From Escherichia phage EPIMAM01: 64,000 nt of DNA. The DNA lies in the sequence record PQ493298; one strand, 5' to 3'. The position numbers and the translations under genes are program-made. The notes beneath the pieces were generated by a model. It saw only the letters and a program-made list of their open reading frames with translations. It was not told the DNA's origin and ran no database searches. Below are positions 23,638 to 30,998 of the stretch, in pieces; position 1 is the stretch's first letter; each line of letters opens with the position of its first letter.

Positions 23638-23641
23638 CAAT

Positions 23642-23659
23642 GGGGACCTTTTGGTCCCC
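23642..23659. terminator. stem-loop GGGGACC-TTTT-GGTCCCC between convergent gene 54 and alt.-3-like ORF
   Basis: Perfect 7-bp stem read in sequence. Confidence 0.65.
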
Positions 23660-23665
23660 ATATTT

Positions 23666-23974: not shown

Positions 23975-24017
23975 TGTCAGTAAGATTATTATAACACAGC
24001 ACGAGGGACTTGTAAAC
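23975..24017 (-). promoter_or_regulatory. sigma70-like early promoter (GTTTAC -35, TATAAT -10) upstream of 96-aa ORF
   Basis: Minus strand reads GTTTAC...(18 nt)...TATAAT; about 50 nt nearly identical to region upstream of alc. Confidence 0.6.
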
Positions 24018-26074
24018 TACATCTTGAACTTTTTAGACATTCCGTTGATGTTAACCAAAGAAGCCAAGATTTGAGAAACTTCGTTTTCCTCTTCTTTTGA
24101 TTCTTCTACAAGGAATTGATTAAACCCAGCCATTGGACGAACTTCACCAGTTTCCATTAGATGATCGCCATCATATACCGATTCTTCTAATTGTTCAGAA
24201 GGAGGAACGATTGTGCCTTCAATTAGATACTTGTTATAAGCAGTTTCTTTCATCATGTACGTGCTCACTTTATTAATCTTCAGCAAAATTCCACGCGGTA
24301 GAATAACTTCAGCTTCTGATGGAAATCCTGATAAATGACCTGGAACGATAACTTTGATTCGCTCAGCCCCTTTAATTACCATACCTACGCTAGCTTCAGC
24401 ATCTTCATTAGCATATGCAGAATGACTACCCATATGCATTAAATCTTCAGCATCAACAGAACCTTCTCCTTCACCAGAAAATACTGCGCCGGAATCATCT
24501 AGAGCCATATAGTTTTTACCATGCTCACCGAAGATATTTGGTTTAAGCGATGTTGATACGAAGTTCTTGAAATAGAACATTTTATTTTCAATATTATGGC
24601 GTAAAGTTTTAAAAGTAACTTCTTGACCACGATAAAGCGTAGTTCCCGGAGGAAGAACTGATCCTTTGGCGAATGCAGAATCCATTGTCTCGATGTGTTT
24701 AATAGCTCGTTCCATGTATTCTTCACGGGTAGAATCCGGTTTACCTAAAAGGAACGAGTTCATTTCAACATATGAATCTGCACAATAATCTTCAATTACA
24801 TCAGACTCAGCCTGAGTTAATCCTTTTGGAGTTACTTCGGTGCTTGCGTATTCATATGCCTGAGCAGCAGATTCATTAATCAATTTATAAATGCCATTCA
24901 TGACAAATTGAATAATAGCTACCTTTTCGTCTGGTGCGGCTTTAGAACCTTTAACTAAATCATTGATAATTTTCTTAATAACATCAAAGCTATTAGAAAT
25001 ATTAATGTCAGCGAGATCGCTCAAAATTTTATCGGTTTTATAATCAAAGAATTCTTTATTCTTTAAATATTCTTGAGAACCTTGATGTGTTATATCGCTC
25101 TGCAGTCTGATAGACGGATCACGTAAACGTGCATGGGCCAATGCAATATGATTTCGGAAGCTTTCTAGTTCATAATCGTTAGATTTAAAACGAGAAGCAC
25201 TTCTCATACCACCGATAGCTCCTTTGCCGAAGTTTGAACCAATCTGAATAACGCCAGAGTTCATTGGTCCTTCTGCTTTATATACCGGAACTTTAGATTC
25301 AAACTCTTGATATTTCTTAGCGGCGAAGCTATCACCCTGAAGTGAAGCATCGACAGTAGAATATTGAGCTTGTGCTGCTAATCGACGACTAATTTTAGTT
25401 TTCTGAATAACAGCTTGATCCGTGCGCTTATCATTTTCTAAAGCAATAGAAGCAGCTACAGCAACAGCTTTAGGAACAGCATTACCTGTTTTAACATCTA
25501 CATAAACATCACCAACCTTTGATTCAACTTTTGTGAATAACTCAGTTGAAATAGGAGGTACACCTGGAATGTCTTCTAAATTGGCATTTTTACGGTAAAC
25601 CATAATATATGCATACTTTTTATCGTAATCCCAGATTTCCTTTAAAAGAACATATCGACCTGCTCCTTTAGTACGTACTAAACGGTCAGCAATAACTTGC
25701 ATTTGACGAGCTGCGCCATTTGTTTTACTTTTTAGTACGCGGAATAGGCATGCATCAATTTTATACTGTTTCATTGTTTGAAGAGCAGTATCAAAAACAG
25801 CATTAATGACACCAATTGGATTTCCACCCAAGTTTTTAAGTTTAACTAATGATAGTTTCTCATTAACACCTATCATTACGATATGCATCATTTTATCACC
25901 TGGCTTAACGTTTTTATTTGTATCACCGCCAGAGGTGTATGTACAAAATCTAAATCCAGGAAGCACGCTTTCTTCACCGGCTTGAATAGCAAAAATTTGA
26001 GGTATTTTATGCTTAGGATTTAAGTTAACAACCGGCGCCGAAGCGCCGTCAAATAATTCTGTAATAAGTTCCAT
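24017..26074 (-). CDS. Alt-like ADP-ribosyltransferase paralog (685 aa)
   Basis: N-terminal MELITELFD shared with neighbour; YRG, STS and EAE motifs consistent with R-S-EXE ADP-ribosyltransferase. Confidence 0.85.
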   Translation of the reverse strand: MELITELFDGASAPVVNLNPKHKIPQIFAIQAGEESVLPGFRFCTYTSGGDTNKNVKPGDKMMHIVMIGVNEKLSLVKLKNLGGNPIGVINAVFDTALQTMKQYKIDACLFRVLKSKTNGAARQMQVIADRLVRTKGAGRYVLLKEIWDYDKKYAYIMVYRKNANLEDIPGVPPISTELFTKVESKVGDVYVDVKTGNAVPKAVAVAASIALENDKRTDQAVIQKTKISRRLAAQAQYSTVDASLQGDSFAAKKYQEFESKVPVYKAEGPMNSGVIQIGSNFGKGAIGGMRSASRFKSNDYELESFRNHIALAHARLRDPSIRLQSDITHQGSQEYLKNKEFFDYKTDKILSDLADINISNSFDVIKKIINDLVKGSKAAPDEKVAIIQFVMNGIYKLINESAAQAYEYASTEVTPKGLTQAESDVIEDYCADSYVEMNSFLLGKPDSTREEYMERAIKHIETMDSAFAKGSVLPPGTTLYRGQEVTFKTLRHNIENKMFYFKNFVSTSLKPNIFGEHGKNYMALDDSGAVFSGEGEGSVDAEDLMHMGSHSAYANEDAEASVGMVIKGAERIKVIVPGHLSGFPSEAEVILPRGILLKINKVSTYMMKETAYNKYLIEGTIVPPSEQLEESVYDGDHLMETGEVRPMAGFNQFLVEESKEEENEVSQILASLVNINGMSKKFKM

Positions 26075-26077
26075 GAT

Positions 26078-28174
26078 TTATCCTTGAACGAACTTGTAAG
26101 GCATGTTTGTAATATCTATGCAAGACGCAATAATTCCAAGAGATGATTCGACTTTCTGTTTAACATTTGATGAAACAAATGATGCAAAATCAACTCTGTC
26201 TTCTATTTCAATATCACCTGTCATTGCAACTACTTCACCAGTTTCCATTAGACGGTCACCGTCATAAATTACTGATTCGGTGAGTTCTTCCGTAGTCATA
26301 ACTTCAGCTTGAATGAGTTTTGTATTATTAGATGTTGTTCCGTCATTATTAGAAGCATCAGTTATTTTATTAACTTTGACCATCAATCCGCGTGGTAGAA
26401 TAACTTCAGCTTCTGTTGCTATTCCGAGACTTCCTGGATATACAACATTAACTTTATGAGCTCCATCAATTGCCCATCCTATTTGAACTTTAACGTATTC
26501 AGGATTTTCTTTATACGCTCTTATTTCATTTGGATTAATAGTTATTCCTTCTTCATTTTTATCAACTGTCAATTCATTACGAGCTTCTGGTTCTAAAAGA
26601 CCAATACCAGCATGTGTAATTCCAAAACGTCCAAAAATGATAGGAGTTAAAGAAGTAGATACAAAATTTCTGAAATAGAACACTTTATTTTTAACTAGTG
26701 CTTCGTATATAGGAGCAGTCATGCTTTGAGCACGATAAACTGTAATGCCTTCTGGTATACGGTCACCATTTTCAAAAGCTGAATCTAAGTTATTTATAGC
26801 AGATTCAATTTCTTTTTCACTCATTACATCATATCGTTCTGGATTGTAGCGTCCTAAAAGAAGATTATTGATGTCAGTATATCCTGAACCACAATACTCT
26901 CTAATGCCGCGCTTTTGTGATGGAGTATATTTAGAACCATCACGGGCAATAGTAATATCAATCATTGGACCTGCACCAATTCCAGAAAAACTATAAATCA
27001 TTCTTTTGAGGAATTTAGTTTTTGCTGCGTTCCAGGAAGTTTTAGTTATTTCTTCCCAGACTTCATCTGGCTGTCCTTTACGTGTTTTATTATGTTTATC
27101 AAGCCAATTATCTTTATATTCTTCAAAGAGTTGATTAACGGCTGCTGCGTATTTCTCTAAACATTTTATTGAAGTAGTTGGTTCATTTTTAATCGCATTA
27201 AGAATTACATCTTTAATCTTTTCAGAAACTTCATCAACCTCACTTTTTGAAAAGAATTTATAATCATAATGAAGTTCATTTGCGGTTCCTTCGGCAATAA
27301 TTTTTGCTGCCTTGGTTTTAGAAGCTAATGAATTAATTCCAAGTTTCATTTCTTCCGCTTCGGGAATTAAAGGAGCGGTAGCAGGTTTATTGAAATTAGC
27401 TGCGGTAGATTCATACTTCTGGAATAATTCACTTTCAAATCTAGAAGATTCCAATGACTGACTTTGCGCAATTGCTCTACGGGAAATTTTAACTTTAACG
27501 ATTACGGCTTGATCAGAACGTTTATCGTTTTCTTGCGCAATAGATGCTGCAATTGCCTCATTTTTAGTTACTTGAGCTCCAGTATCTTTATTGATATAAA
27601 CATCACCGACCTTCGATTCAACTTTAGTAAAGAGCTCGGTACTAATTTCCGGAACTCCTGGAATGTCTTCTAGCGATACATTTTTGCGATGTATAAGAAT
27701 ATATGCGTACTTTTTATCGTAATCCCAGAGTTCCTTAAGAAGGACGTATCTGCCACCTGAACGACTGCGGATAAGTCTATCAGCAATAAGTTGAATTTGT
27801 CGAGCTTGACCAGCAGTTTTAGACTTAAGAATACGGAGCATACAGGCATCAATTTTATACTGACGCATCGTTTGCATTGCAACTGTAAAAACTGAATTGA
27901 TATAATTAATTGGGCTTGGACCGAGACCTTTTAATTTAGCAATTGAACCTTTAGCAGTTAATGTAAAAGGAACAATATGCATCATTTTATCGCCCATCTT
28001 TAAATCGCGATTAGTATCACCTCCAGATGTGTAGGTACATAAACGAAAGCCTGGTTGTTCAATTGCGTCATCAACATGAACTGAAAAAATTTGCGGTATT
28101 TTCTTCTTTGGATTTAAGTTTGTAATCGGAAGAGTAGTATCTTCGTCAAATAATTCTGTAATGAGTTCCATCAT
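26078..28174 (-). CDS. alt: Alt-like ADP-ribosyltransferase paralog (698 aa)
   Basis: N-terminal MMELITELFD; YRAQ, STS and EAEVILPRG motifs; adjacent to gene 30 side. Confidence 0.85.
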   Translation of the reverse strand: MMELITELFDEDTTLPITNLNPKKKIPQIFSVHVDDAIEQPGFRLCTYTSGGDTNRDLKMGDKMMHIVPFTLTAKGSIAKLKGLGPSPINYINSVFTVAMQTMRQYKIDACMLRILKSKTAGQARQIQLIADRLIRSRSGGRYVLLKELWDYDKKYAYILIHRKNVSLEDIPGVPEISTELFTKVESKVGDVYINKDTGAQVTKNEAIAASIAQENDKRSDQAVIVKVKISRRAIAQSQSLESSRFESELFQKYESTAANFNKPATAPLIPEAEEMKLGINSLASKTKAAKIIAEGTANELHYDYKFFSKSEVDEVSEKIKDVILNAIKNEPTTSIKCLEKYAAAVNQLFEEYKDNWLDKHNKTRKGQPDEVWEEITKTSWNAAKTKFLKRMIYSFSGIGAGPMIDITIARDGSKYTPSQKRGIREYCGSGYTDINNLLLGRYNPERYDVMSEKEIESAINNLDSAFENGDRIPEGITVYRAQSMTAPIYEALVKNKVFYFRNFVSTSLTPIIFGRFGITHAGIGLLEPEARNELTVDKNEEGITINPNEIRAYKENPEYVKVQIGWAIDGAHKVNVVYPGSLGIATEAEVILPRGLMVKVNKITDASNNDGTTSNNTKLIQAEVMTTEELTESVIYDGDRLMETGEVVAMTGDIEIEDRVDFASFVSSNVKQKVESSLGIIASCIDITNMPYKFVQG

Positions 28175-28209
28175 ATCCTCTCTAGTGTTTATTCTATTTA
28201 TAAAATTAA

Positions 28210-28223
28210 AGGCCCGAAGGCCT
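28210..28223. terminator. stem-loop AGGCC-CGAA-GGCCT
   Basis: Inverted repeat between alt-like gene start region and upstream small ORF. Confidence 0.5.
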
Positions 28224-28412
28224 TTAATAATCTATTGGTAAGAGAGTACGATATATTTCAAACTTTGGACCTTTTTCATAGGTATCAAATGTTTCTGTGA
28301 ATTTATTATAAGCATATGCATCTATAAATTCAATCATAATTTGTGATACAGAAGTAGAAACATCTCCACCTTCTTTTTGAGCCACGACAATTGTTTCTAA
28401 GTAAGCTTTCAT
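28224..28412 (-). CDS. hypothetical small protein
   Basis: 62 aa ORF overlapping ligase stop by 4 nt. Confidence 0.45.
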   Translation of the reverse strand: MKAYLETIVVAQKEGGDVSTSVSQIMIEFIDAYAYNKFTETFDTYEKGPKFEIYRTLLPIDY

Positions 28413-29869: not shown

Positions 29870-30135
29870 TGTTCATCCTTCAGAGTTTGATTTACAGCTC
29901 TATTATAAATCAATTCATCATTAAGCTCAGTTAAAGACCTATGATATGTAGTTCTAACTTTATTTCCTTGCATCCAGTGCTTGACGTAAATGAAACCTTG
30001 CTCTACACATTTTTTAAAAATTCGTTCATCTTTTTGAGCTCGGAATTCTGGATTGCATCTAAAAAATTGATTTACGTGACCGTAATCACGTGTAGTATTA
30101 CCTTCATTTTCATAAATAGTGTGAACGACAAACAT
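29866..30135 (-). CDS. hypothetical protein (30.1 position)
   Basis: 89 aa ORF coupled to ligase start. Confidence 0.55.
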   Translation of the reverse strand: MFVVHTIYENEGNTTRDYGHVNQFFRCNPEFRAQKDERIFKKCVEQGFIYVKHWMQGNKVRTTYHRSLTELNDELIYNRAVNQTLKDEQ

Positions 30136-30998
30136 TAGAATGCTCCTTGGAAAATATTATCACCACTAGTAAATCTATTAAAATACCCTGCATCACCAGG
30201 CTTAGTATAACTCCACGTATGGAATGGATTCATATGATACGGGTGTGTATAATATGGATTATATGGATGTGTATAATATGGATTATACGGATTAAATCCA
30301 GGAGTTCTCCAGGTAGTGTTCCAAGGAAAAGAATCGTTTTTAACCATCTTCTCAATTAAATCTTTTATAGCTTTTTCACTATCAAAACTTTCTTTATTTT
30401 CCTTCGGCGAAAAAAGCTTATTTTCTACATCATTCCATGTATAAACTCGCTGGGCAGTTTTTGGAATATTGTCACGCTCTCCTCGAGCCATCCAATAAAC
30501 TGGAACATTTAATATTTCACTCGCATGATCGCAGTGGTGAGCGAGATCGTCAATATAACAAATTACGTTATATTTCTCTTTTGCCTTTTTGAATAACTCT
30601 TCTTTTGAAGAATCATGACCACACATCATTACTTCTGAGAAGGCACCAGGAAAAAGAGCATTCAAATTAAATTGACGATTCAACAGAGCGTCAATAGAAT
30701 CACCCAATGCTGTGACAGCTACAAAATTATAATCTTCTTTTAATTTGTTAATTACACACAGGGCATCTTTATATGGAGACAAGTAACGAATAAAATCTGA
30801 TCGATTGTATTTTTCAATTAGCTTGACACCAAGTTCTTCATCACAATTAAAGAGTTTACCTGGAGAAATAAATTTCTCATCTTGGATCATTTTTAAAATA
30901 TGTTCTAACGGAAGATTATATTTCTGAGCAAAATAAGGAAGACCTGATTGCCAGCTTAAACATACTCCATCAATATCAGTTAAAATAGTAGGCTTCAT
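30135..30998 (-). CDS. HAD-like hydrolase with Tyr/Pro-rich repetitive C-terminus (30.2 position)
   Basis: N-terminal ILTDIDGV resembles HAD motif I (DxDG); C-terminal NPYNPYYTHPY repeats. Confidence 0.65.
   Translation of the reverse strand: MKPTILTDIDGVCLSWQSGLPYFAQKYNLPLEHILKMIQDEKFISPGKLFNCDEELGVKLIEKYNRSDFIRYLSPYKDALCVINKLKEDYNFVAVTALGDSIDALLNRQFNLNALFPGAFSEVMMCGHDSSKEELFKKAKEKYNVICYIDDLAHHCDHASEILNVPVYWMARGERDNIPKTAQRVYTWNDVENKLFSPKENKESFDSEKAIKDLIEKMVKNDSFPWNTTWRTPGFNPYNPYYTHPYNPYYTHPYHMNPFHTWSYTKPGDAGYFNRFTSGDNIFQGAF
30244..30291 (-). repeat. two tandem 24-nt units (one mismatch) inside the HAD-like gene
   Basis: TGTGTATAATATGGATTATATGGA then TGTGTATAATATGGATTATACGGA on plus strand. 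Confidence 0.8.

Follow-up and report, generated by a model that had tools for sequence, protein, structure and literature searches.

Accounts based on phage T4 describe a host cell that is reprogrammed by three ADP-ribosyltransferases (ARTs; PMC10468400). Alt, a head protein present in about 40 copies (PMC9026906), modifies Arg265 of RNA polymerase alpha along with a broad secondary set of targets (PMC2988021), and mass spectrometry has located the cuts made in it by the gp21 protease after ITE-6 and LTE-619, with removal of 63 C-terminal residues (PMC5694885). ModA and ModB are phage mono-ADP-ribosyltransferases of the same broad clade (PMC5512222). In addition, T4 holds the short genes alt.-1 and alt.-2, which the T4 record's own note describes as an old duplication of alt, 'of the first part', and which were also treated as an old alt duplication in Nolan 2006, where a full-length duplicate in phage 44RR is described (PMC1524935). 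Here, we analyze the corresponding locus in a stretch of 64,000 nucleotides (the window) from Escherichia phage EPIMAM01 (sequence record PQ493298). The window belongs to a Tequatrovirus of the T2/T6 type with two intact Alt-family genes, an alt ortholog (upstream gene) and a paralog directly behind it (downstream gene), where T4 has one gene and debris.

The DNA of the window is 98.5 % identical to sequenced Tequatrovirus isolates, and the sequence feature as such is already known, hundreds of genomes annotating both genes as Alt-like ADP-ribosyltransferases. Our search of the literature found no experiment on the downstream enzyme, only the annotation-level remarks on T4 and Nolan 2006. The sequence fact is hence no discovery and carries modest weight, but it gives experimenters a well-defined starting point in T2 and T6. 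What it changes is the standing of T4, which is the exception: most sequenced Tequatrovirus phages keep a fourth intact, constrained, and probably injected enzyme with specificity elements of its own. With moderate confidence, we favor the explanation that the locus encodes two intact late Alt-family enzymes that are packaged, trimmed, injected, and directed at different targets.

Two Intact and Diverged Alt Paralogs

The original prediction, made from the letters of the window, had described two adjacent, co-oriented Alt-like genes, and this description holds: two minus-strand open reading frames (ORFs) of 685 and 698 amino acids (aa) lie 3 nt apart (TAA atc ATG), and the pairwise alignment that had been proposed establishes their paralogy far beyond chance (292 identities over 718 positions, 41 %, E 7e-161 by BLASTP, full length). 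The shared start MELITELFD is likewise present in both. As the longer ORF (26078..28174) reads MMELITELFD, its second ATG (28171; 697 aa) is the likelier start, being better spaced from the GAGG ribosome-binding site and matching the MELITE start of T4 Alt, and also because the proteins of database cluster P0103, T2, and T6 all comprise 697 aa. Identity between the two proteins is distributed unevenly, with 68 % over aa 1-240, 18 % over aa 241-410, 36 % over aa 411-520, 22 % in an insert at aa 521-570, 39 % over aa 571-625, and 46 % in the C-terminal tail, so that the central regions do differ substantially, as had been noted.

Both proteins match Pfam family PF03496 (ADPrib_exo_Tox) with 72.3 bits for the downstream and 128.7 bits for the upstream protein (cut-off 23.4), and both are covered end to end by phrog_802, 'Alt-like RNA polymerase ADP-ribosyltransferase' (E 2e-255 and 4e-272). 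The full-length architecture, PF26846 (Tevenvirinae_ADPRT N-domain) followed by PF03496, is recorded on homologs in precomputed annotations; NCBIfam holds no family for either protein of the alt locus. The quoted catalytic motifs were found as LYRGQ and VYRAQ, as NFVSTSL in both, and as SEAEVILPRG and TEAEVILPRG. In an alignment of 19 sequences that covers all recovered types, the arginine of the aromatic-Arg motif, the S-T-S serine pair, and the two E-x-E glutamates are invariant. The R-S-EXE set expected for an active enzyme is therefore complete in both proteins, and neither copy lacks a catalytic residue. In searches of solved structures by sequence, the upstream protein gave weak matches to CdtA and Iota toxins, its VYR and EAEVIL aligning to the catalytic VYR and EYEVLL of CdtA, and the downstream protein gave none. 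AlphaFold models of both (predicted local distance difference test scores of 75.9 and 74.3) comprise an alpha/beta N-domain up to about residue 225, a long helical center, a beta-rich ART core, and a low-confidence tail; they place both proteins in the ART fold of the R-S-E clade, and the Vis toxin is the best structural match for the downstream model as well as for that of the Alt ortholog. In the proposed comparison with ModA and ModB, which are not encoded in the window, BLASTP detected no resemblance to the upstream or the downstream protein (E > 0.9). Judged by these signatures, both proteins are probably mono-ADP-ribosyltransferases of arginine.

The downstream gene is a working gene under strong purifying selection, since its comparison with the ortholog in phage JoYop gives a nonsynonymous divergence (dN) of 0.016 and a synonymous divergence (dS) of 0.31, that is, a dN/dS of 0.05 that is equally low in all four regions of the protein. 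For this reason and because all catalytic residues are invariant, we consider it extremely unlikely that the downstream product is a pseudo-enzyme or a purely structural core component, selection being as strong in the ART domain as elsewhere; nothing speaks for such a role. Its center (aa 241-415) yielded no phmmer match among 1.84 billion cluster representatives, and nothing beyond a sub-threshold CesA match in Pfam. By sequence, this region has no detectable relatives outside its own gene lineage, whose members are probably hidden behind cluster representatives that carry other centers.

Judged by sequence, the downstream gene has its orthologs in the alt.-1/alt.-2 pseudogene of T4 and in the downstream copies of Dhakavirus-like and Moonvirus phages. 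In a neighbor-joining tree of ART domains, one group comprises the downstream copies of Tequatrovirus, CUA3/JS10, and Merlin/KM16, and a second one unites Tequatrovirus Alt with the single Mosigvirus gene, whereas the N-domains cluster by genome or genus in their own neighbor-joining tree. Such a pattern fits an old duplication after which the catalytic half specialized and the N-domain stayed matched to the head core of each phage. Recent gene conversion as the source of the 68 % identity between the N-domains was ruled out: their synonymous sites are saturated (dS ~1.4) and the two genes share no exact repeat of at least 25 nt, so that the similarity reflects constraint. For the clustering of N-domains by genome, co-evolution with the head core or an old conversion is the better reading.

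Loss in T4 and Distribution of the Pair

Whether T4 itself carries both genes had been left open in the original prediction. It does not: alt.-1 and alt.-2, which occupy the same place between alt and alt.-3, are the wreck of the second gene. The product of alt.-1 (NP_049810, 61 aa) is 95 % identical to aa 1-56 of the downstream protein and that of alt.-2 (NP_049809, 67 aa) 98 % identical to aa 62-116. In the DNA alignment, one A is missing in T4 from an A5 run near codon 55, and T4 lost the gene through this 1-nt frameshift together with a 1,690-bp deletion between two CTAAAAAGT repeats. Of 499 records, 91 (~18 %), field isolates as well as T4 stocks, matched a probe across the T4-type deletion junction without interruption. 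Because T4 and about 18 % of its sequenced relatives have lost the gene, the downstream enzyme is dispensable on laboratory E. coli.

An intact fourth enzyme gene is kept in about 80 % of the sequenced Tequatrovirus records. The 442 paralog-specific residues were recovered full length at 95 % identity or more in 401 phage records, after which the next match falls to 51 %. Both genes are found in T2 and T6, whose downstream copies are 98 % identical to the downstream protein of the window; the T6 gene (AXN58232) is labelled 'hypothetical protein ... apparent insertion in alt.-2; also similar to alt'. Phage JoYop combines a T4-type alt with an intact paralog. Full-length tandem pairs also occur in the Dhakavirus-like phage CUA3 (694 and 707 aa) and the Moonvirus Merlin (696 and 707 aa), and a single gene occupies the locus in Mosigvirus PhAPEC2 and Jiaodavirus KpV477. 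The pair is the usual state in Tequatrovirus, and the copy number of the locus is evolutionarily labile. The original prediction was to count as refuted if both genes belonged to the standard conserved complement of all close relatives with functions already known; the pair is indeed standard in most of them, but for the downstream copy our literature search gave no function established by experiment.

Two further arrangements appear in sequence data for the locus, one of them possibly artificial. In Krischvirus ECD7 (L009:4865-5689), alt is followed by a gene for a 274-aa protein that consists of the ART part and lacks the Tevenvirinae N-domain, a third locus state beside the single gene and the full-length pair. 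Moreover, short-read assemblies contain single chimeric genes (P0004, P0005, and P0007; Logan contigs L003:5001-7055 and L004:5001-7061), each the sole gene between alt.1 and alt.-3, in which an Alt-type N-terminus is fused in register to the center and ART domain of the paralog, with crossovers near aa 105, 195, and 225. Among complete phage records, none has this arrangement. The chimeras may be rare natural unequal recombinants that delete the catalytic half of Alt, or assembly chimeras.

Predicted Late Expression, Packaging, and Processing

Late co-expression of both genes with head assembly from one predicted promoter is the simplest reading, because a T4-type late box (TATAAATA) lies 20 nt upstream of alt and no terminator-like hairpin separates the genes. 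This box directly follows the terminator hairpin of alt.1 and is the sole one placed to drive both genes from outside; T4-type late boxes number 19 in the window versus 8.5 expected. On the coding strand, no terminator-like hairpin was found between the two alt-family genes or at any point before the one downstream of alt.-3. The alt.1 hairpin divides the ligase/alt.1 unit from the alt unit, and a terminator is annotated at the same position in the records of Merlin and PhAPEC2. A second exact TATAAATA box lies inside upstream alt (26791-26798, minus strand; nt 1374 of the gene), about 715 nt before the downstream start; it is kept in the alt genes of T2 and T6, is absent from the T4 allele, and may be due to chance or provide the downstream gene with a late promoter inside alt.

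Both gp21 cleavage motifs of T4 Alt recur in both window proteins. Each begins MELITE|LFD, and the position of LTE-619 reads EELTE|SVIYDGD in the upstream and EQLEE|SVYDGD in the downstream protein, the L-x-E motif being aligned in both and lying about 55-65 residues from the C-terminus. In the family alignment, E6 and E631-S632 are invariant or nearly so, and the YDGD..ETGE block is invariant. Cleavage at these motifs would leave mature products of 626 aa (70.1 kDa, upstream) and 625 aa (69.0 kDa, downstream), each with a basic N-domain (isoelectric point ~9.6). Because two such products would co-migrate on gels, older 'Alt' bands and activities of T2 and T6 may have been mixtures.

That both proteins could be packaged and injected, as originally suggested, gains from the retention of both cleavage motifs and from the common late promoter, which point to packaging but do not prove it; both proteins are probably packaged in the head and trimmed by gp21. 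In the course of events that we propose, they would be made late as one transcription unit, enter the prohead core by way of the common basic N-terminal domain and/or the terminal propeptides, and be trimmed behind ITE6 and behind the L-x-E motif close to residue 631. Both would then be injected together with the phage DNA and, within seconds of infection, attach single ADP-ribose units to arginines of host proteins, with the downstream enzyme serving as a second packaged effector whose targets differ from those of Alt.

Alternatively, the downstream product could be an active ART outside the virion that is made late and acts where it is produced, with proteins of the host or the phage that are involved in assembly or lysis timing as conceivable targets. 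ModA and ModB provide a precedent for T4 ARTs acting from within the infected cell, and our search found no proteomic record of the downstream protein in particles. Nevertheless, the downstream protein keeps the N-domain of Alt in full along with the two gp21 motifs, among them the conserved YDGD..ETGE tail that T4 Alt loses on cleavage, and the gene lies in the late unit of alt beside baseplate genes. We regard this explanation as quite improbable and prefer that of two packaged enzymes.

Substrate Recognition and Probable Host Targets

The two enzymes most likely modify different host targets, because the helical center, the insert that follows S-T-S, and the first turn of the ADP-ribosylating turn-turn (ARTT) loop differ strongly between them. 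Three residues ahead of E-x-E, all sequences of the downstream type have F or Y in this loop (GFPS|EAE, EYPE|EAE, YYMG|EAE, NYPE|EAE), whereas sequences of the Alt type carry I, P, or Q (GIAT|EAE, APSN|EME, PQSQ|EME). In C3- and iota-type toxins, an aromatic ARTT residue contacts the substrate, and by analogy the aromatic residue of the downstream type might have a corresponding role.

A redundant duplicate would make do without such a distinction: packaged and injected like Alt, it would in essence modify the targets of Alt (RNA polymerase alpha among them) and add nothing but dose or robustness. The two proteins do agree in domain order, cleavage motifs, and the arginine-type ExE signature, their N-domains are 68 % identical, the gene has been lost repeatedly without obvious cost, and T4 Alt alone is already promiscuous (PMC2988021). 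Yet the ART domains are just 36 % and the centers 18 % identical, the ARTT difference is class-specific, and the downstream-type ART domains form a separate clade across three genera with a dN/dS of 0.05, which would be hard to maintain for a purely redundant copy. Redundancy thus appears rather unlikely to us.

A non-canonical substrate, such as a small molecule, a nucleic acid, NAD-capped RNA (nicotinamide adenine dinucleotide; RNAylation), or a host defense protein, deserves mention as well, since the structures of Vis, the best structural match, were solved with agmatine and with NAD, and ModB demonstrates that T4-type ARTs can use NAD-RNA (PMC10468400); a gene that is dispensable on laboratory strains would also suit such a role. 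However, Vis is equally the top match of the Alt-ortholog model and does not discriminate between the two proteins, and ExE together with an aromatic ARTT residue is typical of protein-arginine ARTs. We therefore assign this possibility little probability and retain host-protein arginines as the presumed substrates.

Several points weigh against two packaged enzymes with different targets. As we found neither an experiment nor a proteomic dataset for the downstream protein, its expression, packaging, cleavage, injection, and activity are all carried over from T4 Alt. The ARTT-loop argument stems from C3- and iota-type toxins and may not transfer. In view of the promiscuity of T4 Alt in vitro (PMC2988021), 'different targets' may mean overlapping sets. 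The repeated natural loss, in the T4 lineage and in the single-gene Mosigvirus and Jiaodavirus, marks the second enzyme as nonessential and potentially in part redundant with Alt. Finally, the trees of the ART domain and the N-domain are neighbor-joining trees without support values.

As a tentative extension that we consider possible though doubtful, most T-even phages including T2 and T6 may inject a fourth ART with recognition parts unrelated to those of Alt and with targets outside the Alt/ModA set, for example, a host defense or stress protein that is absent or irrelevant in laboratory E. coli. A target of that kind would explain the loss of the gene by T4 and about one fifth of its relatives.

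The Upstream Gene as an alt Ortholog with an Exchanged Middle

By best reciprocal similarity and position beside alt.1, the upstream gene alone qualifies as the ortholog of T4 alt. The downstream protein reaches 42 % identity with T4 Alt as a whole and 11 % in the center, and matches alt.-1/alt.-2 instead. The upstream protein shares 70 % identity with T4 Alt (NP_049811, NAD+--arginine ADP-ribosyltransferase) overall, with 99 % over the N-terminal 246 residues, 32 % over the next ~170 (center), 67-75 % in the ART domain, and 94 % in the C-terminal tail, and is 99 % identical to the 697-aa type of T2 and T6. Synonymous divergence from T4 alt is 0.12 in the N-domain but exceeds 1 in the middle, which marks the middle of the gene as a different, exchanged allele. 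At the DNA level, identity to T4 alt is 97 % in the N-domain and 94 % in the tail, compared with 50 % in the center and 69 % in the ART domain (26405-27433 for these two parts). At least two alleles of the substrate-facing half of alt are in circulation, the T4 type (682 aa) and the T2/T6 type (697 aa), which are apparently swapped through recombination inside the gene.

Layout of the Locus and Neighboring Genes

The flanks are those of the T4 alt locus, the alt-family pair sitting between DNA ligase (gene 30) and alt.1 on one side and alt.-3, gene 54, and gene 48 on the other (Table 1).

Table 1. Coordinates of the alt-family genes, their parts, and adjacent features in the window.
Feature	Position	Strand	Basis or remark
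alt ortholog (upstream gene), 697 aa	26078..28171	-	ORF listing; ORF extends to 28174
Upstream alt, catalytic residues R480; S505/S507; E587/E589	26732-26734; 26651-26659; 26405-26413	-	
Upstream alt, gp21 motifs ITE6; LTE632	codon 6 at 28154-28156; 26276-26284	-	
Downstream paralog, 685 aa, intact form of T4 alt.-1/alt.-2	24017..26074	-	ORF listing
Downstream N-domain, aa 7-240	25355-26056	-	
Downstream divergent helical center, aa 241-415	24830-25354	-	
Downstream ART domain, aa 416-625	24200-24829	-	
Downstream C-terminal propeptide, aa 632-685	24020-24181	-	
Downstream catalytic residues R482; S507/S509; E587/E589	24629-24631; 24548-24556; 24308-24316	-	
Downstream gp21 motifs ITE6; LEE631	E6 at 26057-26059; 24182-24190	-	
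Segment missing in T4 and ~91 other phage records, 1,690 bp	24037..25726	-	deletion between two copies of 9-bp CTAAAAAGT
T4-type late promoter box TATAAATA	28195..28202	-	20 nt upstream of alt start
GC-rich hairpin AAAGGCCTTCGGGCCTTT 3' of alt.1	28208..28225	-	read from sequence
alt.1 homolog, Pfam 'Phage_blade', 62 aa	28224..28412	-	neighbor on upstream side
alt.-3 homolog, DUF5498, 96 aa	23666..23956	-	final gene ahead of bidirectional terminator 23640-23661

A strong promoter-like sequence of the sigma-70/T4 early type (TTTACA, 17 nt, TG-TATAAT; 11/12) lies between the stop of the paralog and alt.-3 (23988-24016, minus strand), and early expression of alt.-3, uncoupled from the late alt unit, is accordingly also possible. 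Farther away, the gene at the position of 30.2 (30135-30998, minus strand) encodes a 287-aa protein with a haloacid-dehalogenase-like N-terminal half, followed in its C-terminal part by a short tandem peptide repeat (NPYNPYYTHPYNPYYTHPYH).

Comparison with Known Systems

The same downstream gene or its orthologs are present elsewhere as T2 BBF63359, 'alt.-2' of ime09, Merlin gp219, the 707-aa protein of CUA3, and ORF187c of 44RR (Nolan 2006). The copies of T2 and T6 do not differ in kind from that of the window, and those of other genera retain 36-51 % identity in the paralog-specific part. With respect to T4 alt.-1/alt.-2, the gene is dead in T4 and intact here, and the comparison reveals that a full-length gene was truncated there, as opposed to a partial duplication.

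T4 Alt and the upstream gene are positional orthologs that agree in cleavage motifs, late promoter, and flanking genes and differ in the alleles of center and ART domain; the downstream protein has the architecture and the catalytic set in common with T4 Alt, but an overall identity of just 42 %. ModA and ModB of T4 are early proteins of about 200 aa that are not packaged, whereas the window proteins, at 685 and 697 aa, are encoded in a late-promoter context. The C3, Iota Ia, CDTa, VIP2, and Vis toxins (PF03496) share the ART fold and the R, S-T-S, and E-x-E residues with both window proteins, and those of the C3 and iota type, like the downstream type, have an aromatic residue three positions before ExE. 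In contrast to the toxins, both window proteins are devoid of toxin delivery domains and instead feature the Tevenvirinae-specific N-domain, the helical center, an insert of about 50 aa after S-T-S, and a cleavable C-terminal tail.

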